DNA of 64,000 bases. Origin: Candidatus Latescibacterota bacterium. Its GTDB lineage: Bacteria > Latescibacterota > UBA2968. The stretch lies in the NCBI GenBank assembly GCA_965207885.1, contig OZ242311.1:3232001-3296000 (forward strand), written 5' to 3'. The stretch's first letter is position 1; each line of letters starts with the position of its first letter. This document shows, piece by piece, positions 1 to 23,074 of the stretch. The notes beneath the pieces were generated by a model. It was given only the letters and a program-made list of their open reading frames with translations, did no database searches and had not been told where the DNA came from. The translations under genes were made by a program, and so were the position numbers.

Positions 1-285
1 GCGCGGATCTCCCGTCAGCCGCCAGGCGAATGCATAATGCTCTATCAGTGCGGTTGCGTACATCCCCGTATAGAACGTCAGGTATAGCTGGTGGTATGGG
101 TGCGGGCTGTGAGGTCGTTCGGGAATTCGTTTCCACGGCCGCTGAAAATAAAAAATCTCGCAATCTGCGAGAATATTCTTAAGGATTCGTTTTCGCGCCT
201 CATCCTCCGGCGGGTCGAATCTGTAATTCGGATCATCCGCGGGATGATACAGCCGGGGATGATCCTCACGCAGAACCTGAACCAT
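1..285 (-). CDS. Partial CDS (runs off the left edge), probable heparinase II/III-like / DUF4962-type N-terminal domain protein
   Basis: Manual translation from ATG 285 is open to position 1: MVQVLREDHPRLYHP...IEHYAFAWRLTGDPR. 'HPRL' and 'AFAWRLTGD' resemble the helical N-terminal domain of heparinase II/III-like lyases. It starts 2 nt after the stop of the preceding gene and is not in the ORF track. Confidence 0.55.
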   Translation of the reverse strand, partial: MVQVLREDHPRLYHPADDPNYRFDPPEDEARKRILKNILADCEIFYFQRPWKRIPERPHSPHPYHQLYLTFYTGMYATALIEHYAFAWRLTGDPR

Positions 286-4851: not shown

Positions 4852-5496
4852 TTAAGAAGCCTCCTTTGCCGCATGCATTACTGAGTTTAGATAATTGTCG
4901 TAAGCACCACAGCGACAAAGGTTTCCAGACATGGCAACCCGGGCTTCTTCTCGCGTTGGATCCGGATTGATCTTCAGCAGTGCCACCGCAGACATCACCT
5001 GCCCCGGCGTGCAAAATCCACACTGAGGGCCCAGTTCTTCTATAAATGCTCGCTGAACCGGATGCAACGCGCCATCTTCGCCTTCAAGGCCCTCGACGGT
5101 CACAACCGAACGGCCTCGCACGCGGTGGGTTAAAGTCGAACACGAATACATCGCCACATCATCGACCAGTACTGTACACGCACCGCATTCCCCCCGGTCG
5201 CACCCCAGCTTTGTGCCCGTAAGCCCCAGTTTGTATCGCAAAGTCATCGCCAGTGTTTCCTGTGGCAAAACATCAACGCGACGCACGCGTCCATTTACAT
5301 TGAGAGAAATGAGCCGCTCAACCGCGCCCGGCGCGCTGCCCATATCACCCGCACAGCCTCCAAACACATATCCCATCGCAGAAATAGACGCGCCAGTGGC
5401 AATAATCCCTTTGATAAAATCGCGCCTGGACATCCCCGCTCGACCCATTTCCGCATCATCCAGGAACACGGTCTCGCGAGATAAATTTGTATTCAT
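4852..5496 (-). CDS. (2Fe-2S)-binding subunit with twin-arginine signal (PaoA/YagT-like)
   Basis: SRRDFIK Tat motif; GCDRGECGACTV, QCGFCTPG and NLCRCG cluster motifs; RBS GAGGAGG. Confidence 0.92.
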   Translation of the reverse strand: MNTNLSRETVFLDDAEMGRAGMSRRDFIKGIIATGASISAMGYVFGGCAGDMGSAPGAVERLISLNVNGRVRRVDVLPQETLAMTLRYKLGLTGTKLGCDRGECGACTVLVDDVAMYSCSTLTHRVRGRSVVTVEGLEGEDGALHPVQRAFIEELGPQCGFCTPGQVMSAVALLKINPDPTREEARVAMSGNLCRCGAYDNYLNSVMHAAKEAS

Positions 5497-5541
5497 AGAA
5501 CCTCCTCATGCTTTTTTCTGCCTTTGAATCTGCATTGAACA

Positions 5542-5570
5542 TTTATAGAGAGAAAAAAACAGCCTGTCAA
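5542..5570 (-). promoter_or_regulatory. Putative sigma70 promoter of the molybdoenzyme operon
   Basis: Minus strand TTGACA-17 nt-TATAAA. Confidence 0.6.
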
Positions 5571-5571
5571 C

Positions 5572-6438
5572 TCAGTTTTTAGCACTCGCTTTTTCTTCCG
5601 CTTCGATCAGCGCGGCGACATCTATGCGCCCCGCATTGTGTGGGGGTTGCATAATAGCCTGTTGAAGCGGTGTCAACTCATCCATAAACGGCGCATATTT
5701 CGCGGGATCATTGCCACTCGGCGGGTTGACATACCCCCCTGCGGCATAGCGATATAACAGAGTTCGTCGCTCGTGATCCGCAGTCCACGGCATCGCGCCA
5801 TGTGTCAATGCCTCGGTAAAAATCACTGCAGAACCCGCCTTCATGGGAATATGCTTAAAACAACCCAGGTCCCGCTCCATTCGGCGCACATCCGTCGGGC
5901 ATTCAAAATTTGCCTTATGACTGCCGGGAATACACACAAACCCACCGTCGCCAAGATTGACATCGGCGAGTTGATAACACACGGCAATCAGATTATTCCA
6001 CATCTTCCCATCTTTGCAGAAATACATATGTCCGCCCAAAAATCCACCGCCGCCGTGAAGCAAATGCCCTTCTGCTCCTCTGGTCATGCTAATCCCATTG
6101 GCATTGCCATAGCGAAATCCATTGCCGATCATATCGAGCATATAGTGCATCGTTGGCAAATGAGATAGCAGATCTCGGAAGGGTTGACACCACGGCTTTG
6201 GCCATCTCAAAATACTCCCGATGTCACCACGTCCATGCGTGCCTTCCAGTGCGATAGAAACCTCACTACCGTGTTGACCCGCGCCACCCGACAACCTCAG
6301 TTTCCCCTCTCGAATCCGTATTCTGTCTCGATTGTGATCAATCGCCTCGTTGAGTGCTGCAACCTGATCGGCGGACAAAATATCCTCCACAACCAGATAT
6401 CCATTTACATCAAAAAAATACTTCTCATAAACGTCCAT
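5572..6438 (-). CDS. Phytanoyl-CoA dioxygenase (PhyH) family protein
   Basis: FFDVNGYLVVEDIL, GGFVCIPGSHK, AGSAVIFTEALTHG and ERRTL motifs. Confidence 0.88.
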   Translation of the reverse strand: MDVYEKYFFDVNGYLVVEDILSADQVAALNEAIDHNRDRIRIREGKLRLSGGAGQHGSEVSIALEGTHGRGDIGSILRWPKPWCQPFRDLLSHLPTMHYMLDMIGNGFRYGNANGISMTRGAEGHLLHGGGGFLGGHMYFCKDGKMWNNLIAVCYQLADVNLGDGGFVCIPGSHKANFECPTDVRRMERDLGCFKHIPMKAGSAVIFTEALTHGAMPWTADHERRTLLYRYAAGGYVNPPSGNDPAKYAPFMDELTPLQQAIMQPPHNAGRIDVAALIEAEEKASAKN

Positions 6439-6550
6439 AACAACCTCCTCATGGATTCACCGAAAAATTATAACATAAATTTTAAGTTGAAAACTTCTGA
6501 CCTTCGCCCTATTTTGCCTCGTCATTAAAATGCTTTACACTGGGGGATTC

Positions 6551-8050
6551 ATGTTTGGTCTGCACATCTACGACGTGCTCACACTCGGCGTTTATCTCGT
6601 AGGCATCACCACCATCGGTCTCATTTCATCTCGAGGAGTCAAAGGCACACTCGATTATTTTATGGGTGGGCGCAAGTTTGGCAAAGCCGTGCTCATCATG
6701 CATGCCTTTGGCACCGGAACCCATACCGATGCAGCTGTCAATGTCGTCGGTGCCTCTTACAAAATGGGGATGCGCGGGATATGGTATGCGTGGCTGCCCC
6801 TGTTTTGCACCCCCTTTTACTGGATCATGATGCCTCTTTTCAGGCGCATGCGTTATATCACCACAGGCGACTTTTTTGACGAGCGTTTTGGCAAAGGACT
6901 CGGCCCGGCATATACGGCTTTTGGTGTTCTCTTCTACGTGCTCGCCATGGGAATTATGCTCGAAGGCACGGGAAAAATGGCAAGCGGGATTACCGGCGGC
7001 GTGCTCAGCACGGAAACCTGCATCATTGTCATGACAATCCTATTTGTATCCTATGGCCTGTTAGGTGGCCTACAAGCCGCTGTCATCACGGACTTTATTC
7101 AGGGCATATTCGTCATCGTCCTGTCTTTTTTGCTCTGCCCGTTTCTGCTCGATCAGGTCGGTGGTTTTGCCGGGCTGCATCAAACACTGCCACAGGATGT
7201 CTTTGGACTCACAGCGCCCGATGATCCACCGCCCGGCTATGACCGCATCTCCATCGCATTTGTCATCATACTCACTATCAATACCCTCTTCAACATCCCC
7301 GGGCAGCCCCACTGCATGGAAATGGGTGGCTCTGGCAAAACAGAATGGGAAGGCCGTGTAGGATTTACCTACGGCAACATGATCAAACGCTTTTGCACCA
7401 TTGCGTGGGCATTTATCGGCGTGGGCGCCATGATCATATATCCCAATATAGACGATCCCGAACTCGTCTTTGGCATGGCAACACGCGACCTGCTGCCTGT
7501 TGGTCTCGTCGGTGTCATGCTCGCATCCATGCTCGCAGCTGTTATGTCTTCTTGCGACTCGTTTATGGTCGCCGGATCGGCACTCTTTGTCGAAAATATT
7601 TACAAGCCCTATTTTGCGAAAAAAAAAGAAGACCACCACTATCTCAATGCAGGGCGGATTATGGGCATCCTCATGGTCATCGCGGGCATAGTGGTAACGG
7701 AAATTTTTAGTAGCGTAGTCGAATTGTGGCGTTTTCTCTCGGCACTCCCCGCCTTCTGGGGCATCGCAGTATGGGGCGGCATCTTATGGCGCAGATGCAA
7801 CGGCTACGGCGCGTGGGCTGGCCTGATCAGTTCTGCCCTCGTGTGGTGGATTACCCGCAACTATTTCCATCTGGAGTTCATGGAACAAGTGATCTGGTAT
7901 CTCAGTACGGGCGTTCTACTCACTATTATCGTAAGCCTATCCACACCCCAACAGCCCAAAGCAATACTCGACAAATTCTACACCACTTTGCACACCCCCG
8001 TAGGACAGGAAGACAAACTCAGAGCACTGGGTTACGAAGTTCGGGACTGA
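6551..8050 (+). CDS. Sodium:solute symporter family protein
   Basis: About 13 TM segments; DYFMGGRKFG, GGLQAAVITDFIQG and LAAVMSSCDS motifs. Start placed at ATG 6551. Confidence 0.92.
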   Translation: MFGLHIYDVLTLGVYLVGITTIGLISSRGVKGTLDYFMGGRKFGKAVLIMHAFGTGTHTDAAVNVVGASYKMGMRGIWYAWLPLFCTPFYWIMMPLFRRMRYITTGDFFDERFGKGLGPAYTAFGVLFYVLAMGIMLEGTGKMASGITGGVLSTETCIIVMTILFVSYGLLGGLQAAVITDFIQGIFVIVLSFLLCPFLLDQVGGFAGLHQTLPQDVFGLTAPDDPPPGYDRISIAFVIILTINTLFNIPGQPHCMEMGGSGKTEWEGRVGFTYGNMIKRFCTIAWAFIGVGAMIIYPNIDDPELVFGMATRDLLPVGLVGVMLASMLAAVMSSCDSFMVAGSALFVENIYKPYFAKKKEDHHYLNAGRIMGILMVIAGIVVTEIFSSVVELWRFLSALPAFWGIAVWGGILWRRCNGYGAWAGLISSALVWWITRNYFHLEFMEQVIWYLSTGVLLTIIVSLSTPQQPKAILDKFYTTLHTPVGQEDKLRALGYEVRD

Positions 8051-16546: not shown

Positions 16547-16598
16547 AAAAAAAAGCCCCATCCAAGATCGTGCAAGCGATTTTAGACGGGGCTTCTTT
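16547..16598. terminator. Intrinsic terminator-like hairpin, possibly bidirectional
   Basis: A8-GCCCCATCCAAGATCG...CGATTTTAGACGGGGC-TTCTTT. Confidence 0.65.
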
Positions 16599-16721
16599 CA
16601 GTTGTCAGAAACGAATCAATGTCACCCCATATGATTAAAAGTTTTGGTGGATAATTTCGGAATAAAGCCTTAGATTTTGCAAATCAGTTCTAATATGATA
16701 TACGTGGAGATTCCTTATTAC

Positions 16722-17996
16722 ATGTCCAAATACCGAGAATACATGGCACAGATTCTAAATCATCCCATTCTAAAAAAAAGTCCCATTGCCCAGGTAGCAC
16801 TCTATCTTGCGGCCCTTTTTGTTGGCCTCTATATCTGCACAAAAGCGGCGATCTGGCTCGATGGAGCTATCACCGGACTGCAAGGTGGGCAAGTCCTTCA
16901 GGGGGGAACTTTTTGGAAGGCACTTACCGTCACATTCCAACAACCCGACAATCCAAAGCAAAAAATTGCAGTCACTGATATCCGCTTTAAGAATGTAGAT
17001 CGTTTTTTACCCATCGCCGTAATCGTACACACACAGGGAAGTGACGTAACCTATCATACCGGTACGCAACGCGAATGGATCGCAATACCCGACGTGCCCG
17101 TCGATAGCCTCGTCATTCGTACGCGCAACGCCAGCCACAGTGCGGTGATTGACGATTTGAGTTTTCAGTACAACAACCGGAGCTATGCGATGGACTTTGA
17201 CCATACAGCCGATGGTCCTATTGCGCCCAATACGCAGATGCTCGAATACAAGTTTGAGGACATCCAAATCGCATTTGCAGCCGACAATGCCGTACCCACG
17301 GTTGTTCGCGGCGGTGATTTGGCCGAATCCATCGGACGCTATATCTCCAACATCAGCGGTCCACTTTCTACGGTTTTGATCTTGCTCTTGATTGCCCTGC
17401 CCTTCTATATGGTTGTGCGCTATGCTCAGGTTTTATCTCACGACTTATCACCCGACCGATTCTTCACCAATTCCGATGCGCAAATCGTTCAGAAGCAGGG
17501 TATTAACCTGCTATGGGGCGGTCAATACAACGCCGATTACGCCCTATCTGAAAACACAGAACTCTATGCTATCCTTACATCTGTCGAATCTGAAATCGCA
17601 TCTGACCAGGCCCGATTGGTCGAGCGATGCACCGACAAAATCTATCTTCTCTTTGATGAAATTGAAGATCGCCTATCCGAAGGATTTGGCATGTTGGGAC
17701 TTTTATCGCTCTCCATGGGCCTTTTGGGCACAGTGATTGGCATGATAGACGCCTTCAAAATTTTAGAAGACACCATGAAAGTCGGCGAAGGCCCAGCTCA
17801 AACCCAGCTCAAAATGGCGCATTATATCAACTTTGCCCTCGTCACCACAGCTATTGGATTTCTCGGACGCATTCTATCCATGATCCTCATACGCAAAACC
17901 AAAGCCCGCAGCCTGCAACATCGGGCGCGCATGCTCAACCTTGTTCAGCACTTTTATCAGATAGATACAGGCGAGAGAAAAGAAATAGGAGATTGA
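16722..17996 (+). CDS. MotA/TolQ/ExbB family proton-channel protein with an extra N-terminal TM and a large beta-rich extracytoplasmic domain
   Basis: C-terminal SMGLLGTVIGMIDAF...FALVTTAIG signature. Start uncertain (ATG 16722 or 16743). Confidence 0.85.
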   Translation: MSKYREYMAQILNHPILKKSPIAQVALYLAALFVGLYICTKAAIWLDGAITGLQGGQVLQGGTFWKALTVTFQQPDNPKQKIAVTDIRFKNVDRFLPIAVIVHTQGSDVTYHTGTQREWIAIPDVPVDSLVIRTRNASHSAVIDDLSFQYNNRSYAMDFDHTADGPIAPNTQMLEYKFEDIQIAFAADNAVPTVVRGGDLAESIGRYISNISGPLSTVLILLLIALPFYMVVRYAQVLSHDLSPDRFFTNSDAQIVQKQGINLLWGGQYNADYALSENTELYAILTSVESEIASDQARLVERCTDKIYLLFDEIEDRLSEGFGMLGLLSLSMGLLGTVIGMIDAFKILEDTMKVGEGPAQTQLKMAHYINFALVTTAIGFLGRILSMILIRKTKARSLQHRARMLNLVQHFYQIDTGERKEIGD

Positions 17997-17997
17997 C

Positions 17998-18528
17998 GTG
18001 AGACATCGCAACAGGCGACCTTTGGCAGCACTTTTAGACACGGGCGAAGGGTTTATTGATGTCTTGTTTTTGCTGCTTACATTTTTTATCATTCAGAACG
18101 TGTGGCAAACCCATCTCGCCAATTTACACAACCGCTTTGTCCACGCACAAAAACTCAATTTTATCAAAGCACCCGACGAAAAAGGCTCTGCCCCCCATCC
18201 CACGGATGAACGATTTTTACAGATCATCATCGGTAAATCCTATGTGCAATTTGACAAAGGCGGCGTTGCCACCGAAGAACACATGGTCTTTCAAGACCGC
18301 GCAGACAACGACCAGATTGGTGTTGAACGCGCTGTATTTTTGTCCGTAAAAAAAGCTTTACTCGCACTACAGGCACAACATGGATTTGCGCCCAATGACA
18401 TTTTGGTGCGCCTCTATTTTGAACGCGATGCAACCGTGACTTATACCGTTGGCGTGTACGACGCCCTCAACAACAGTGGATTTAAGACTGTGCAATGGGG
18501 GCTTGAAAGTCAAAAAAGAAAGTTGTAA
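17998..18528 (+). CDS. ExbD/TolR family protein (divergent)
   Basis: FIDVLFLLLTFFII TM segment with the conserved Asp; C-terminal 'VRLYFERDATVTYTVGVYDALNNSGFKTV' fits the ExbD alpha/beta domain; GTG start 1 nt after the exbB-like stop. Confidence 0.82.
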   Translation: MRHRNRRPLAALLDTGEGFIDVLFLLLTFFIIQNVWQTHLANLHNRFVHAQKLNFIKAPDEKGSAPHPTDERFLQIIIGKSYVQFDKGGVATEEHMVFQDRADNDQIGVERAVFLSVKKALLALQAQHGFAPNDILVRLYFERDATVTYTVGVYDALNNSGFKTVQWGLESQKRKL

Positions 18529-18536
18529 AATAGAAT

Positions 18537-19895
18537 ATGTCTCCCCGTGAAAAAAAAATGATCCAGAGCGCTGCTGAAAGCATGCGACGAGATCATCCCA
18601 AATTCTTTGGCGTGTTATCTGCCATACTGCGCGCTCGCAACTTGGCTGAGGCGCGTCGGGCATGTAATTATCCCTCGTCCGAAGACTTTACAAGCGTCTA
18701 TCACCGGGCCATCGAATATCTCTTCAAACAGTTGCGTGACCTGGGGTATGTCCCCCCATCGGAAACCGATAGCTTTGAGGAAAGCATAGGGCAGAGTGCG
18801 CCATCGGGCCATTTCAAATTGCCCTCACGCGAAATCATCAATCGCTTCTACAAAGGCCATATCTTCCACGAAGCATGCGCGCTTGTGGCCATACAGAATC
18901 ACCTGGGGCTTTCCAAACTCTGGGCGCACTTCCCCAAGCGCCGGCATGAAATAGAAATCGCCATCGCCCTTGTTCCGGTCCAGGCGATAGTCCCTCAACT
19001 ACAGTCCATTCGCTTGTCCCATACCCCTATTCAACGCACACAACAACGCTTTTTGTCCGCATTGGCCGGTGCGTTTGCACTGGGCATCGTCTTGCTATTA
19101 GCACTCAGTCCTCCTCAGGGAGGGAGGGCATTCAAAGCCATTGTCACAAATTTTGAAGATATGCTCGTAAGTGCGCAGGGCATCTTTGACATGAGCAAAA
19201 ACGCACGAGAAGACGTCAACGTAACAAAACCAGATCCAGAACCCCGGGTGCAGGCTGCCCCAAAGCCAGCGCCTCGTCCTAAAATCGCGCTGCCGGACAA
19301 ACCGAAATTGGCACTCGCATCTTTGCCCGATATTCCGCGCCAACTCGACAGACCATCGCTCGGTGGATTAAAAGCCCCGCCCCGTGTCTCGACACCCAAC
19401 ATGGACAGAGGTGCAAACCCATCGTCGTTTTTTGGTTCGCGGCCAGAAGTCCATGTCGCTCGCGCCACTATGAGTATGCCCGCCCCTGCCACATTGCCAT
19501 CAACTGGCGCGAGCGCAGGCAAAGATCAGCCCGAGCAACAAGCAGAATCCACCGATCTCAAAGGCTACCGGCCTGCTGGACGCATTGGTTTTTCCAACTT
19601 TCATACATCGGGTGGTCTCTCGGCAGAACTCGTGCGGCTGACCCGTATCCAGCGCGCACTTTCTCGACTGAAAATGCCTCAAAACAGAATATATGAAAAT
19701 GCCCAACTCACATTGGCGCCAGACAAAGCCAGAATACAATTTGCCGACGGTGTTGCATTTATCCTCACATTTCGGCTGGGCCAACTCGACGACATTCAGA
19801 TTTTTGCACGCTCGGGCATAGACAAAGCCCTTCACATAGAAACCGAAGCGCGCCGGGGCATCCGCTTTCTCAACCGCGCCCTGAGCAATTCGTGA
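18537..19895 (+). CDS. Bitopic membrane protein: cytoplasmic N-domain, one TM, Pro-rich linker, C-terminal domain (TonB/TolA-like topology)
   Basis: TM FLSALAGAFALGIVLLLAL near aa 172-190; Pro/Lys-rich KPDPEPRVQAAPKPAPRPK; follows the exbBD-like genes. Confidence 0.65.
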   Translation: MSPREKKMIQSAAESMRRDHPKFFGVLSAILRARNLAEARRACNYPSSEDFTSVYHRAIEYLFKQLRDLGYVPPSETDSFEESIGQSAPSGHFKLPSREIINRFYKGHIFHEACALVAIQNHLGLSKLWAHFPKRRHEIEIAIALVPVQAIVPQLQSIRLSHTPIQRTQQRFLSALAGAFALGIVLLLALSPPQGGRAFKAIVTNFEDMLVSAQGIFDMSKNAREDVNVTKPDPEPRVQAAPKPAPRPKIALPDKPKLALASLPDIPRQLDRPSLGGLKAPPRVSTPNMDRGANPSSFFGSRPEVHVARATMSMPAPATLPSTGASAGKDQPEQQAESTDLKGYRPAGRIGFSNFHTSGGLSAELVRLTRIQRALSRLKMPQNRIYENAQLTLAPDKARIQFADGVAFILTFRLGQLDDIQIFARSGIDKALHIETEARRGIRFLNRALSNS

Positions 19896-19903
19896 GGTCG
19901 CTT

Positions 19904-21289
19904 ATGATTATGAAAAAAATCTTCCTTATCTTCTTCGTTTTTTTGATTTTGCCAGCCCTTTCTTTTGCGCAGGGAAAGGACGACAGCCTCGCCTATCAGT
20001 CTTTTGAGCAGGGCCGCAGTGCTTACGCGCTTGGGCGATATATTGAAGCCGTCGCACATTTTGAGCGTGCGTGCAACCAGGCTCTCATCTTTACCAGTGC
20101 CTATTATATCTGGCTGGGCACGGCAGGCGAGCGTGCCTACGACACGGGTCAGGACGCGCCCAACCGATTGGACCTGCTCAGAAAAAGTGCCGACGCCTAC
20201 CGCACGGCGCTCGACCGCGAGCAAGACCCCGATATTCGCTACGAATTGGGACGTCTCACCGTCAAATACGCGATGGCGCGTGCCAACTTCGTGCTTGAGC
20301 GCGAAAGCAACCGCCAACCTCTGCCGCTGGATTTGCCCCCGCCAGTATTGCGAGACAGCACCTGGATACCCACGCGCTTTCAACCCGCAACAATTGACTC
20401 CCTGCACCGAATATGGCATCTCGCAGAGGGTGGTCTGCGCGACATTTGGATGGCGATTCTCGGCAGAACGCAAAAGGAAATTGTCTATGCTGCGCCGCAA
20501 CGCAGCACCATGAGTGACACCCTTCAGGCTTATTTAAGCGTCTATATCGAAAACAGCCTGAACCTGATCGAGACCGCCGGACAGGCCAATTTTGAAGGCA
20601 TAGAACCCGATTTTTACATCCCCAAAATTGCCGCCGCATCTTCTCGCGGCGTTTTGGGCGATAACCCCGACTGGTTCAATCAAGTGCTCGCTGCCGCGCG
20701 CTTTGATGGCGGTTATAACATGCGCTGTGCCATCTACCGCCTCAAGGGATTGCGCCACAGCAAAGAAGAAGAAGCCAACCGCGCAATCCACGCCATGCAA
20801 CGCGCTCTGGTCTATGCGAGATCCGATACCTCTCGCGCCGCCCTCTATCTCGACATGGCCTTCACCGCGTACCGAGACGACTTGCCCAGAGCCGTTGAAT
20901 ATGCCAAATACGCATACGCGCACAACCAATACGAACCGAGAGTGTGCGATACCTATGGCGGGCTTTCGCTCAGTTTGGCGAGTGTAAAACTCAAAGAAGG
21001 CGCGTACCGCGAGGCGATTTCAACCATTTATCCCGTGACATCCTTTGGATGGCAAGACCGCGGCGAAGCCCTGATCACCCTGGCGATTGCCTATTTCAAC
21101 TCCGACCTGCAAAATGTGGGAGCGAGAGCATACCAGGCCGCGGAAATGGCCTATCGCATTGCGCCAGAACGCTACTGGAAAGAATTTCATCGCATCGCCA
21201 AAAGTCAGGGCAACTATGTGCAAGCGCGTCAACTCGAAGAAAAGCACAGCAGCACGTTGCTCAGCAAAAAACAGGACACCTCCCCATGA
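19904..21289 (+). CDS. Secreted TPR-like helical repeat protein
   Basis: Signal peptide MKKIFLIFFVFLILPALSFAQ; TPR-like segments (FEQGRSAYALGRYIEAVAHFERA, GAYREAISTI, ALITLAIAYF). Confidence 0.75.
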   Translation: MIMKKIFLIFFVFLILPALSFAQGKDDSLAYQSFEQGRSAYALGRYIEAVAHFERACNQALIFTSAYYIWLGTAGERAYDTGQDAPNRLDLLRKSADAYRTALDREQDPDIRYELGRLTVKYAMARANFVLERESNRQPLPLDLPPPVLRDSTWIPTRFQPATIDSLHRIWHLAEGGLRDIWMAILGRTQKEIVYAAPQRSTMSDTLQAYLSVYIENSLNLIETAGQANFEGIEPDFYIPKIAAASSRGVLGDNPDWFNQVLAAARFDGGYNMRCAIYRLKGLRHSKEEEANRAIHAMQRALVYARSDTSRAALYLDMAFTAYRDDLPRAVEYAKYAYAHNQYEPRVCDTYGGLSLSLASVKLKEGAYREAISTIYPVTSFGWQDRGEALITLAIAYFNSDLQNVGARAYQAAEMAYRIAPERYWKEFHRIAKSQGNYVQARQLEEKHSSTLLSKKQDTSP

Positions 21290-22986
21290 ACACCCTGAGA
21301 TTTATTTTTTTTTGCATCCTGCTGACCACACCGCTCCACATCCAGGCTCAAGAAACAGAGCCTGCGCCGAGGATGCTTTTCAAGACGAAAATCCACATTC
21401 GCTCAGAACCCACAGGTGCTCAGGTCTTCATCAATGGGCAGGAAGCGGGTTATACGCCATTTGTCACAGAAAAGCTACTGGACATTGGCGATAAAATTCA
21501 GGCGTATGCACACGGCTACCAGCCCTGGATGCGCACATTTACGACAACCGTTTTGGCAGATACGGTGCATATCGCGCTCATACGTCAGAAAGCGCATTTG
21601 GAGATCCGATCTGATCAACTCGCGGCCTTAGGCGCAGAAATCCACCTTCGGTTTGCAGATCAAGACACGACCATCACCGGGTTTATCAACATCGGACGCG
21701 GCAATGTGGCTTATGAGTCGGACCTTTTTGTGGGCAAATACCGCCTCGAAATCAGCAAACCCGGCTTTAACCTCATCGAACAAGACCTCTTTCTGCCCCC
21801 GCGTGGCAAACTCATAGAAATTAGGCTTACCCGCAATCCGCTGCCACTCACGGAATTGTCCATCCCCGGTCTCGTGGATATCGCAGACCAATACCTCGCC
21901 GAAAGCGCGCAACTCCTCGAGGCTGCCCTGGCCATTGGCGAAACAGTCCCCGCGGTTGAAACCAATGCGTCTATCCGCCTCAGCGACTCGCGCCTGACGC
22001 CTTTTATCGAAGACTTGAAATACTATAGCCACCAGACGCGCGAATTAGAACTCACGCTGAGTCGCCTGGGACAAAGCGAAATCGGCGTGCTGCGCGCCCT
22101 CGCGCAAATTGATGTGTACCATGGTATTGTGCTCGGCAAATACCGCCGCTTCTCAGAAGCGCACGCGCTCTTCCGAGAAGCCCGAGAGCGTTCTCCTTTT
22201 CCCATTGAACAAGAACCCAATCCCCTTCCAGGGGAAAACGAGTCCAGTCTGGGCGATCTCACGCGCTTTGCCGAACAATGGCACACACGTCTCGGTCGAT
22301 TAGATGTCAACGTAAATGCGGCCTGGCTCGCCATTCGCAACATGCACCCCAACACCCTGCGCTTTGAACAGGTGCGCTTCACGCGAGAGGCACCCGTGCC
22401 CCCGGCCACATCACCGCACGAACAAGCCATGTACGATAGCCTCACTACCCTTGCCGAACACATCTTGAACGAGAATATCGCCAATCGGGAGCAAGAGTTT
22501 TCTCTCACCCTTCCCAAAGGCCATTACATGCTCAAAGATACGCAAAACATGGCCATTCCCATTTCATTCCGAGTTTCCGATGCCCCTACTTTTCTACCCA
22601 TCTCACCGCGCGTCAGCCTGTGGTTGCCCACCGCCAAAACCGCGTCGGATACGGTTCGCTTGCAAACCGTCGTCGGGGACGAACTCGGCCCGATTGTTCA
22701 ACCCGACCAAATTACTTTTGGCCGAGAATACGCACTTCTGGTCAAAATGGGCGATTACAAACGCCACCGCGAAAACATCATCCTCTATCCTGCAAGCGGC
22801 ATCAAACCCGTCTGGCCCGGCGTCACCGCCATTGCAGCGACCCCAGGTATGGAATGCCTGTATTACAAAACAGGAAATAAAAAATTGGAGACATCTATCC
22901 TCGGCAACATCCAGGGCAAACGCAGCGGACTTCTCAAATATCTGCTCATCCCCATCGTCGGCATAGGCGTTGCCCTCGCGCTGTGA
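21286..22986 (+). CDS. PEGA domain protein with signal peptide and C-terminal hydrophobic anchor
   Basis: MNTLRFIFFCILLTTPLHIQAQ signal; IRSEPTGAQVFINGQEAGYTP PEGA motif; GKYRLEISKPGF; ends KRSGLLKYLLIPIVGIGVALAL. ATG 21286 overlaps the upstream stop (ATGA). Confidence 0.8.
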   Translation: MNTLRFIFFCILLTTPLHIQAQETEPAPRMLFKTKIHIRSEPTGAQVFINGQEAGYTPFVTEKLLDIGDKIQAYAHGYQPWMRTFTTTVLADTVHIALIRQKAHLEIRSDQLAALGAEIHLRFADQDTTITGFINIGRGNVAYESDLFVGKYRLEISKPGFNLIEQDLFLPPRGKLIEIRLTRNPLPLTELSIPGLVDIADQYLAESAQLLEAALAIGETVPAVETNASIRLSDSRLTPFIEDLKYYSHQTRELELTLSRLGQSEIGVLRALAQIDVYHGIVLGKYRRFSEAHALFREARERSPFPIEQEPNPLPGENESSLGDLTRFAEQWHTRLGRLDVNVNAAWLAIRNMHPNTLRFEQVRFTREAPVPPATSPHEQAMYDSLTTLAEHILNENIANREQEFSLTLPKGHYMLKDTQNMAIPISFRVSDAPTFLPISPRVSLWLPTAKTASDTVRLQTVVGDELGPIVQPDQITFGREYALLVKMGDYKRHRENIILYPASGIKPVWPGVTAIAATPGMECLYYKTGNKKLETSILGNIQGKRSGLLKYLLIPIVGIGVALAL

Positions 22987-23008
22987 GAATGCAACCAGGT
23001 CAAAAAAC

Positions 23009-23042
23009 AAAAAAGCACCCGTTTTTTATTCGGGTGCTTTTT
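23009..23042. terminator. Bidirectional intrinsic terminator between convergent genes
   Basis: AAAAAAGCACCCG-tttttttatt-like loop-CGGGTGCTTTTT. Confidence 0.8.
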
Positions 23043-23074
23043 GTTAATTTTAAATTTCTGTGATAATGCCTATC

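Follow-up and report, generated by a model that had tools for sequence, protein, structure and literature searches.

The window analysed here, 64,000 nucleotides (nt) of a Candidatus Latescibacterota bacterium (contig OZ242311.1), carries at positions 16722–22986 a cassette of five tightly packed plus-strand open reading frames (ORFs), g1 to g5, between two strong hairpins. We tentatively read this cassette as a rare, accessory and lineage-restricted motor of the ExbBD/TolQR class that has its own non-TonB output proteins and acts as an energised envelope sensor, a reading to which we give slightly less than an even chance. Proton-driven 5:2 motors power Ton uptake, Tol envelope stabilisation, flagella, gliding and Zorya defence. 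A 2025 survey states, in the portion drawn on here, that further motor-coupled systems remain to be found (PMC12204202). The cassette would add to them a transducer whose head is, by sequence, neither TonB_C nor vWA, and a stator with its own periplasmic domain. Moreover, it suggests that a motor-coupled tether is directly linked to a cytoplasmic sigma-factor-like module, which would, if confirmed, widen the known uses of such motors, and it would offer a compact five-protein system for studying the read-out of force or rotation at the inner membrane.

The protein encoded by g1 matches the Pfam family MotA_ExbB (PF01618; 4.2e-11, 43.1 bits against a cut-off of 22.9) over residues 321–403 only, and its orthologue in locus L030, which belongs to the second genus found to carry the cassette, matches the same family with 45.1 bits. 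Hydropathy predicts four transmembrane (TM) segments: TM1 or a signal-anchor at residues 22–44, a periplasmic part at 45–213, TM2 at 214–232, a cytoplasmic part, and a TM3/TM4 hairpin at 324–390. In an alignment to TolQ (8odt), T337 and T376 of g1 correspond to T145 and T178 of TolQ, and both are invariant in 10 of 10 family rows. According to section 8 of the 2025 survey, an Asp and a threonine ring form the conserved core of 5:2-type motors (PMC12204202). The NCBIfam equivalog models are far from being reached: g1 scores 24.4 bits with tolQ (TIGR02796, cut-off 221) and 17.8 bits with exbB (TIGR02797, cut-off 206.2). Judged from its sequence, g1 is a very divergent channel subunit of the MotA/TolQ/ExbB family with an apparently intact channel core.

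The periplasmic domain of g1, 169 amino acids (aa) long, is 63% and 42% identical to those of two distant family members, about as much as the cytoplasmic part; for TM1, the corresponding values are only 26% and 13%, as expected for a leader or anchor. It contains 8.9% Ala, 4.7% Pro and 34% beta-prone residues. It has no usable match in the ESM Atlas, and a search of PDB sequences with the g1 profile gives a best E of only 0.05. A parallel is provided by the 'long' ExbB proteins of Serratia and the Alphaproteobacteria, which are described in the pages of PMC9008036 used here as having a signal sequence and a periplasmic extension, as binding the head of HasB (a TonB paralogue) and as possibly acting in signalling. 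The same pages give the length of these extensions as a few to 150 residues (about 50 on average), and characterise them as Ala/Pro-rich and invisible in cryo-electron microscopy (PMC9008036). Like these proteins, g1 has an N-terminal periplasmic extension. However, its extension is 169 residues long, is not Ala/Pro-rich and is as conserved as the channel part.

The g1 family is small and stands apart. In a word-indexed search of 5.8 billion proteins, g1 has 10 relatives. A profile search of 1.84 billion representatives returns 63 proteins at E<=0.001, six at E<=1e-10 and four at E<=1e-30, the six being four family clusters and two short N-terminal fragments. The best protein outside the family scores 57 bits, against 328–772 bits within it. 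Among the next-best 27 relatives that were scanned, 26 match the tolQ/exbB models, all below the cut-offs; therefore, g1 is an outlier on the TolQ/ExbB side and not on the MotA side. In a quick maximum-likelihood tree of the C-terminal domain (67 rows), the seven g1-family rows lie on one branch (SH-aLRT 98, stem 1.57), apart from the two canonical ExbB proteins of the genome, although the placement of the clade is unsure because its nearest neighbours are long branches.

The second protein, g2, had been called ExbD/TolR-like, with the conserved membrane Asp, in an earlier note made from the DNA letters alone. The residue is indeed there: hydropathy predicts a single N-terminal helix, and its Asp21 is invariant in 7 of 7 orthologues. 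The family assignment is less firm, since the match to Pfam ExbD (PF02472; 4.9e-4, 20.6 bits) stays below the cut-off of 25.4 bits; the L030 orthologue scores 13.9 bits. An hhalign comparison with the canonical ExbD of the genome aligns the TM helix only (18 columns, 61% identity, E 3.8e-6), the Asp included. The profile of g2 has 0 matches among PDB sequences at E<=10, and neither this search nor hhalign detects ExbD/TolR similarity or other relatives for its periplasmic domain. As far as the alignments go, g2 is an ExbD/TolR-like axle subunit that appears to have only the Asp-bearing trans-pore helix in common with ExbD.

By sequence and structural model, the third protein, g3, has a layout of the TonB/TolA type: an N-in membrane helix, a Pro-rich periplasmic linker and a globular head, the head not being TonB_C by sequence. 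In order, it comprises a cytoplasmic domain resembling sigma-70 region 4 (residues 1–73), a conserved helical domain (96–146) with the densest run of invariant positions in the cytoplasmic part, a TM helix (172–190), a juxtamembrane helix, a linker (221–340) with 17% Pro and short invariant motifs, and a C-terminal alpha/beta domain (344–450). An AlphaFold2 (AF2) model built on a 17-row alignment has a mean predicted local distance difference test (pLDDT) score of 64.9. Residues 1–145 and 344–450 are confident, with pLDDT 80–92 in the N-domain and C-domain (82–92 in the head, 344–450); the linker is below 50, and residues 149–176 and most of 192–338 are disordered. No Pfam family is found in g3 at E<=1, and none of the 17 aligned members has a relevant family, including TonB_C or TolA, at the same threshold. 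By sequence, g3 is thus not the ordinary TonB_C/TolA protein that would have refuted the earlier note; the TonB_C model (PF03544) itself finds 9 matches elsewhere in the genome. The 52 relatives of g3 in the large collection are all at least 55% identical and none has a Pfam domain; the g3 profile finds nothing meaningful among PDB sequences. In the model, the head consists of one strand, two helices, five strands and a final helix, and even its best matches are weak, to a flagellar sheath protein (Z 6.7) and a polo-box (Z 6.5, root-mean-square deviation (rmsd) 2.8 over 79 residues). A Foldseek search of g3 against the PDB gives nothing at E<=0.001 (best 0.078), and no TonB or TolA chain is among the matches listed for the whole g3 model, the head not having been searched alone.

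Like ExbB-ExbD-TonB and TolQ-TolR-TolA, the cassette has tightly coupled genes for a channel subunit that carries the MotA_ExbB hairpin and the two pore threonines, for a partner whose trans-pore helix bears an Asp, and for a bitopic third protein in which a periplasmic tether rich in Pro leads to a C-terminal head. In contrast to Ton and Tol-Pal, g1 has an extra N-terminal TM and a folded-looking periplasmic domain of about 170 aa, the periplasmic domain of g2 is without ExbD/TolR similarity, g3 is without a TonB_C/TolA signal and has a large, conserved cytoplasmic part of 170 aa that begins with the domain resembling sigma region 4, and the operon is without receptor, TolB and Pal. Given that the overall layout of g3 resembles TonB, it could be argued that g1, g2 and g3 form a specialised energiser that replaces ExbB-ExbD-TonB for some outer-membrane transporters encoded elsewhere. 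The 9 TonB_C matches indicate that multiple Ton systems are usual in this genome, and PEGA, the domain found in g5, groups with the Ig-like CP-type domains that precede some transporters in the Fibrobacteres-Chlorobi-Bacteroidetes (FCB) group. We consider such an energiser improbable, because the g3 head is without a TonB_C signal in Pfam, because neither genus has a receptor gene in or beside the cassette, and because g4 and g5 have no counterpart in Ton systems. Nor is the cassette the only motor of the cell. The genome has four MotA_ExbB matches, two of them canonical (113 bits each), so that the cassette is an extra motor. The canonical loci are arranged as TonB_C-ExbB-ExbD-extracytoplasmic function (ECF) sigma-zf-HC2 anti-sigma and as TPR-ExbB-ExbD-ExbD-TonB-TPR.

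The output of the motor may be inside the cell. A VIA-align comparison of the g3 model with 48,161 PDB representatives gives sigma-factor entries in all of the first 19 rows, which align via region 4 on g3 residues 1–73 (from 1..64 to 1..73 per row). The best row is region 4 of SigL (3hug_A; Z 9.6, rmsd 1.7 over 69 of 80 residues), and further rows include SigK (Z 9.0) and SigW (Z 8.6), all in the range below a Z of about 13 in which matches between helical domains may reflect a common arrangement. The likeness is nevertheless given weight on account of the uniformity of the rows, the low rmsd and the coverage of the entire domain; residues 1–73 of g3 are predicted to fold like sigma-70 region 4. 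Another clue comes from L030. In this locus, a 221-aa ORF (L030:12012–12677) lies between the g2 and g3 orthologues, directly upstream of g3. Its Pfam match to Sigma70_r2 is faint (E 0.061). It aligns colinearly, over regions 2.4 to 4, with a canonical ECF sigma factor encoded in the window's genome (121 residues, 27% identity, E 4e-5). Sigma/anti-sigma pairs are usually arranged in this way, with the sigma gene immediately before that of a bitopic protein, and it is mainly on account of this gene that signalling is ranked first. Taken together, the sigma-like domain of g3, the periplasmic domain of g1 and the sigma-like gene of L030 shift the weight towards signalling among the three functions (secretion or assembly, motility, signalling) proposed by the earlier note. 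An origin of the g3 N-domain as a copy of the L030 sigma-like gene was also considered and is unsupported: hhalign against the g3 alignment gives a probability of 0.6%.

In TonB-dependent cell-surface signalling (FecA-FecR-FecI), an envelope signal reaches a bitopic regulator and an ECF sigma factor only with the help of a proton-driven motor. The cassette resembles this system in that L030 has a sigma-like gene directly upstream of g3. Unlike this system, the cassette encodes no receptor carrying a signalling domain, g3 does not resemble FecR (no Pfam match), and a single operon, in part even a single protein, combines the motor with the tether and the cytoplasmic module; the operon of the window is without a sigma gene. 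As an energised sensor, the cassette could work as follows. By analogy with the family, g1 would form a pentameric channel ring and g2 a dimeric axle, with Asp21 lying beside T337 and T376 of g1. The motor would pull or rotate g3, whose head may engage g4 as a helical scaffold, g5 as a PEGA-TPR-beta-sandwich protein with an inner-membrane tail anchor, and the periplasmic domain of g1. A mechanical or occupancy state could then be relayed via the membrane helix of g3 to its cytoplasmic sigma-like module, which would hold or release a transcription component. The logic would be comparable to that of TonB-dependent cell-surface signalling, except that a single operon would provide motor, tether and regulator and that a gene for an outer-membrane receptor is lacking. 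The 5:2 assembly, the coupling of g3 to the motor, the contacts among the periplasmic parts and the output are inferred.

In a stricter form of this proposal, the motor would be dedicated to gene regulation and g3 would be a force-operated sigma mimic or anti-sigma factor. The tether of g3 would be held in place by g4, g5 and the g1 periplasmic ring, and a proton-driven pull on it would determine the state of the sigma-like module, which would thereby free or capture a transcription component. If true, this would be the first 5:2 motor with a transcriptional signal as its primary output; we regard it as rather unlikely.

A number of observations weigh against the cassette being an energised sensor. 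First, sigma region 4 is not found by sequence (PF04545 or PF08281) in g3 or in the 17 members, and none of the 23 matches of PF08281 in the genome is at g3. Second, in the helix that corresponds in position to the recognition helix, the net charge ranges from -4 to +3 over 17 rows; this makes DNA binding doubtful and would favour a protein-binding role. Third, the sigma-like ORF of L030 has no counterpart in the window's genome by tblastn (E>=0.44), and no cognate sigma gene is present in the window's operon or in the neighbours scanned. Fourth, the membrane helix of g3 contains no His in the 16 rows of the window's genus-level group, and an S-x3-H is present only in the L030 orthologue. The SHLS motif is given in section 8 of the 2025 survey as a feature of the TonB/TolA membrane helix (PMC12204202); with no His in the helix in the window's genus, TonB-like docking of g3 on the motor is not assured. 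Fifth, no outer-membrane partner is identified among the five proteins, and g5 looks anchored in the inner membrane. The lineage-specific trans-envelope complex driven by proton motive force that the earlier note had proposed thus keeps its lineage restriction (2 of 49 genera), a distinct stator and an intact Asp/Thr signature, but the outer-membrane end of it was not found. Sixth, a genome of the same genus, G001, which is a single contig and 97% complete, is without g1 and g5. A last limit concerns expression. Contigs from four metatranscriptome libraries (three studies) cover 26–28 of 30 bins, and single contigs of such libraries bridge g1/g2/g3 (17550–19124), g3/g4 (19815–20138) and g4/g5 (20542–21333; 20470–21605); this speaks for one unit of five genes that is probably expressed, but contigs of this kind prove neither transcription nor a single transcript.

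The last two proteins of the cassette are probably periplasmic partners. The g4 protein has an N-terminal hydrophobic leader by hydropathy and many invariant blocks common to the two genera, and its Pfam matches to TPR are all below threshold, the best being TPR_2 (0.0077, 16.7 bits against a cut-off of 27). It is predicted to be a secreted protein of about 460 aa, and its sequence suggests that it is all-helical. In g5, an N-terminal leader is followed by PEGA, a TPR-like helical part (about 190–336), a beta-rich part (about 400–530) and a TM at the very C-terminus (548–566). The PEGA match (PF08308; 6.7e-8, 32.8 bits) is above its cut-off of 20.8 bits, and the L030 orthologue matches PEGA with 47.5 bits in two stretches. 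The 24 relatives of g5 are all at least 49% identical. In its AF2 model (mean pLDDT 58.6), residues 240–530 are fair (pLDDT 70–89) and the first 240 residues are poor, so the PEGA assignment comes from Pfam. The helical part matches TPR domains with Z up to 9.9, and the beta-rich half has only weak Ig-like or pilin-like matches in Foldseek against the PDB (best E 3.9e-3; none at or below 0.001).

The main rival explanation is a mechanical machine. Under this explanation, the motor drives g3 to move or tether envelope material, as in Tol-Pal or Agl-Glt, for stabilisation of the wall or outer membrane, for assembly of a surface polymer or adhesin, or for gliding; g4 and g5 would be periplasmic scaffolds, and the cytoplasmic domain of g3 would serve only for localisation or for regulation of the motor. 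The gene order, which runs from channel and axle through the tethered Pro-rich protein to a TPR-like and an Ig-like/TPR protein, parallels tolQ-tolR-tolA with periplasmic partners, including the TPR protein CpoB, and in the Glt and Nfs systems of Myxococcus, too, TolQR-like motors occur together with TonB-like and TPR proteins. In the ESM Atlas, g5 has as neighbours PEGA/TPR proteins from Krumholzibacteriota and Myxococcota with scores of 0.82–0.89, which is below the 0.9 mark and makes them leads only. TolB_N has no match in the genome, which is 97% complete. According to section 10 of the 2025 survey, PorE is a fusion of TPR, TolB, Ig-like CP and Pal folds (PMC12204202). The same survey, in the parts cited, has Ig-like CP domains and TPR modules proposed as partners of TonB/TolA-type proteins and CP implicated in contacts with TonB, so that a protein with PEGA and TPR such as g5 would be a plausible partner of a tethered transducer.

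There are, however, three arguments against a purely mechanical device. First, by Pfam the operon has no OmpA/Pal peptidoglycan-binding protein, no TolB and no outer-membrane barrel protein. Second, 147 of the 168 Latescibacterota genomes lack the cassette, as does one complete genome of the window's genus, and it is thus not a core envelope function. Third, the sigma-region-4-like domain of g3 and the sigma-like gene of L030 would be unexpected in such a device. On balance, a mechanical machine seems to us unlikely, though it is the strongest of the competing explanations.

The restricted distribution of the cassette is the basis for calling it rare and accessory. The window belongs to a genome of 6.23 Mb in a single contig (97% complete). 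In a run search, 14 rows have at least half of the sampled words: 9 from sponge metagenomes, 1 from a marine metagenome and 4 with a coded organism name. As a single-protein query, g1 has a match in 19 of the 20 other genomes of the genus and in 0 of 20 genomes that represent seven further genera of the family and order. The profile of the g1 family, at E<=1e-15, finds 21 of 168 Latescibacterota genomes, in 2 of 49 genera, the second genus belonging to another family of the same class. The g5 profile finds the same 21 genomes and, in addition, a single C-terminal fragment in a third genus, located on a short contig. A scan of metagenome contigs adds six further short loci and no new context. 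In G001, the orthologue of the cupin gene that lies upstream of the operon (locus L053) has other neighbours, and nothing of the cassette is found within 9 kb of it; the cassette is therefore accessory and dispensable. Because it occurs only in two genera of bacteria that are uncultured and mostly sponge-associated, tests of its function must be heterologous.

Where the cassette is present, it is kept as a unit. The order and strand of g1 to g5 are the same in all 18 loci fetched, including L030, in which the five proteins are 58, 67, 32, 53 and 38% identical to those of the window and the flanks are unrelated. The expectation of the earlier note that a conserved five-gene order would go together with a distinct stator clade is therefore borne out on both counts. 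Pairwise dN/dS against three relatives is 0.05–0.09 for the stator genes, 0.14–0.18 for g4, 0.15–0.28 for g5 and 0.25–0.32 for g3, one g1 comparison being left out on account of a stop codon in the cut; all five genes are under purifying selection.

The fragment of the third genus lies in locus L050 (G078:C230:1–6493). Its ORF (413–943, 176 aa) corresponds to no more than the C-terminal third of g5, with the terminal TM, and is followed by the same Ig-domain gene as follows g5 in L030; it may be a remnant or an assembly break. The genome in question, G078, has no g1 match, an absence that is weak since the assembly (91% complete) is in 290 contigs and the g5-like piece is on a contig of 6.5 kb. 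The Ig-domain gene of L030 (L030:18244–20229, downstream of g5) encodes a secreted protein of 661 aa with Big_9 and Ig-like domains, and there is no such gene downstream of the operon in the window. By eye, the C-terminus of the 661-aa protein resembles a type IX secretion sorting domain.

Other known motor systems offer further comparisons. Section 8 of the 2025 survey describes vWA force-transducer loci made up of a TPR gene, tolQ-like and tolR-like genes and a membrane-tethered vWA protein (PMC12204202). They share with the cassette a non-canonical motor-plus-transducer operon, a TPR partner and the lack of TonB. In contrast, the cassette has no vWA family (Pfam E<=1), one ExbD-like gene and another stator clade, and the head of g3 is a small beta-sheet/helix domain. 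In the Agl-Glt and Nfs systems of Myxococcus, a TolQR-like motor works with TonB-like bitopic proteins that have cytoplasmic N-terminal domains and with TPR proteins, in a set of a dozen or so parts that includes outer-membrane barrels. No sequence similarity to their parts turned up, none having been specifically searched for; AglRS is named among the motors in the section of PMC12505986 consulted. The class of motors with a tethered transducer and TPR partners is already known, and it was widened in 2025 by the vWA-headed transducers, as far as the cited part of PMC12204202 goes. What sets the cassette apart is the stator clade, the periplasmic domain of the channel subunit, the head that is by sequence neither vWA nor TonB, and the cytoplasmic sigma-like domain. 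A search of the published literature, which did not cover the supplements of the cited papers, found no description of the cassette.

A Zorya-like or other motor-based defence against phages would be suggested by the patchy, accessory occurrence of the cassette (2 of 49 genera, with one genome of the window's genus lacking it), and Zorya uses a MotAB-like 5:2 motor, as stated in the part of PMC12505986 cited. However, PADLOC gives no match for g1, g2, g3 and g5 and only a chance-level match to Cas8b (E 0.0056) for g4. Moreover, g1 is without a long cytoplasmic tail, the operon is without a nuclease or other effector domain by Pfam, and the flanks are metabolic and not defence islands. We regard defence as very improbable.

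The layout of the operon largely agrees with that given in the earlier note (Table 1). Five close-packed genes on the plus strand, two bounding hairpins, an ExbB/TolQ-like first protein (its MotA_ExbB match being above the Pfam cut-off), a bitopic Pro-rich third protein with one TM, and a PEGA protein with an anchor at its extreme C-terminus had all been described and were found again. The secreted TPR protein of the same description is g4, for which the hydrophobic leader agrees and the TPR assignment stays below the Pfam cut-off. The missing receptor, TolB/Pal, OmpA-type and vWA proteins were confirmed as well: TonB-dependent receptor, TolB, PD40, Pal/OmpA and vWA have no match in any of the five proteins (Pfam E<=1; NCBIfam). 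The junctions are, in order, a gap of 1 nt, a gap of 8 nt, a GTGA overlap (a short gap if g4 begins at an ATG) and an ATGA overlap.

Table 1. Genes and non-coding features of the cassette, with positions in the window
Feature	Position	Strand	Remarks
g1	16722–17996	+	424 aa; ATG matches start position in other aligned loci of the genus (10 aligned)
g2	17998–18528	+	176 aa; GTG start
g3	18537–19895	+	452 aa
g4	19892–21289	+	465 aa from GTG; start uncertain, ATG at 19904 or 19910 as alternatives
g5	21286–22986	+	566 aa
Upstream hairpin	16553–16594	+	-23 kcal/mol; z -4.28; 0 of 200 shuffles as stable; between cupin gene and operon
Downstream hairpin	23006–23045	+	-19.5 kcal/mol; z -5.02; 0 of 200 shuffles as stable
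Conserved non-coding block	16637–16685	+	49 nt; 37–85 nt upstream of g1

With regard to the start of g4, tblastn matches in relatives begin at residue 6–7. In contigs of RNA libraries X15 and X16, 6 nt (19902–19907) are missing between the GTG and the second ATG; this gap fits a start of g4 at one of the two ATGs, or a strain difference.

Both hairpins fold far better than their shuffles. The upstream one is flanked by A- and T-rich runs and is kept within the genus in the alignment of loci; it is likely to be the terminator of the upstream gene and the left border of the operon. The downstream one has A/T runs on both sides and is likely to be a two-way terminator shared with the convergent DUF5916 gene, and the right border. 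Neither was picked up by a simple consensus terminator scan, and in the consensus scan promoter-like and terminator-like sites are rarer than in shuffles. Between the upstream hairpin and g1, the non-coding block is the best-conserved part of the upstream region among the 10 aligned loci of the genus; a consensus sigma-70 scan finds no plus-strand site in it, and it might be put forward as a candidate promoter or operator. The neighbours in the window are metabolic: the cupin upstream, the convergent DUF5916/CBM9 protein, a penicillin amidase, GFO/IDH/MocA oxidoreductases and a sulfatase.

Some minor observations concern other copies of the cassette and other loci of the genome. In L026, a locus of the same genus, an insert of about 900 nt (L026:11221–12124) lies between g1 and g2 and looks, by eye, like an IS200/IS605-type TnpB fragment; the best g3 match in this locus spans only residues 1–243. 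A relative of g3 (P0083, 86%) and a relative of g5 (P0123, 99%) are labelled 'Gemmatimonadetes bacterium' in one public source. As titles for the same cassette otherwise read Latescibacterota, one of the two labels is probably wrong. Locus L037 (G000:C1:946000–961000) contains TonB_C-ExbB-ExbD, followed by an ECF sigma factor, a zf-HC2 anti-sigma factor, an LTXXQ protein and a resistance-nodulation-division (RND) efflux pair; it gives this genome line a second example of a motor beside a sigma/anti-sigma pair. The fourth MotA_ExbB paralogue of the genome (252 aa, 29 bits) is very divergent and is found in locus L039 (G000:C1:2347000–2362000; ORFs 5066–6406, 6406–7164 and 7128–7583), between proteins of 446 aa and 151 aa without family matches; a HEC-01A/HEC-01B candidate defence pair adjoins on the other strand, and L039 may be a separate small motor system. 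Finally, GC skew over the window (1–64000) is negative in 32 of 32 2-kb windows, with a cumulative value of -5.18, though genes are on both strands.

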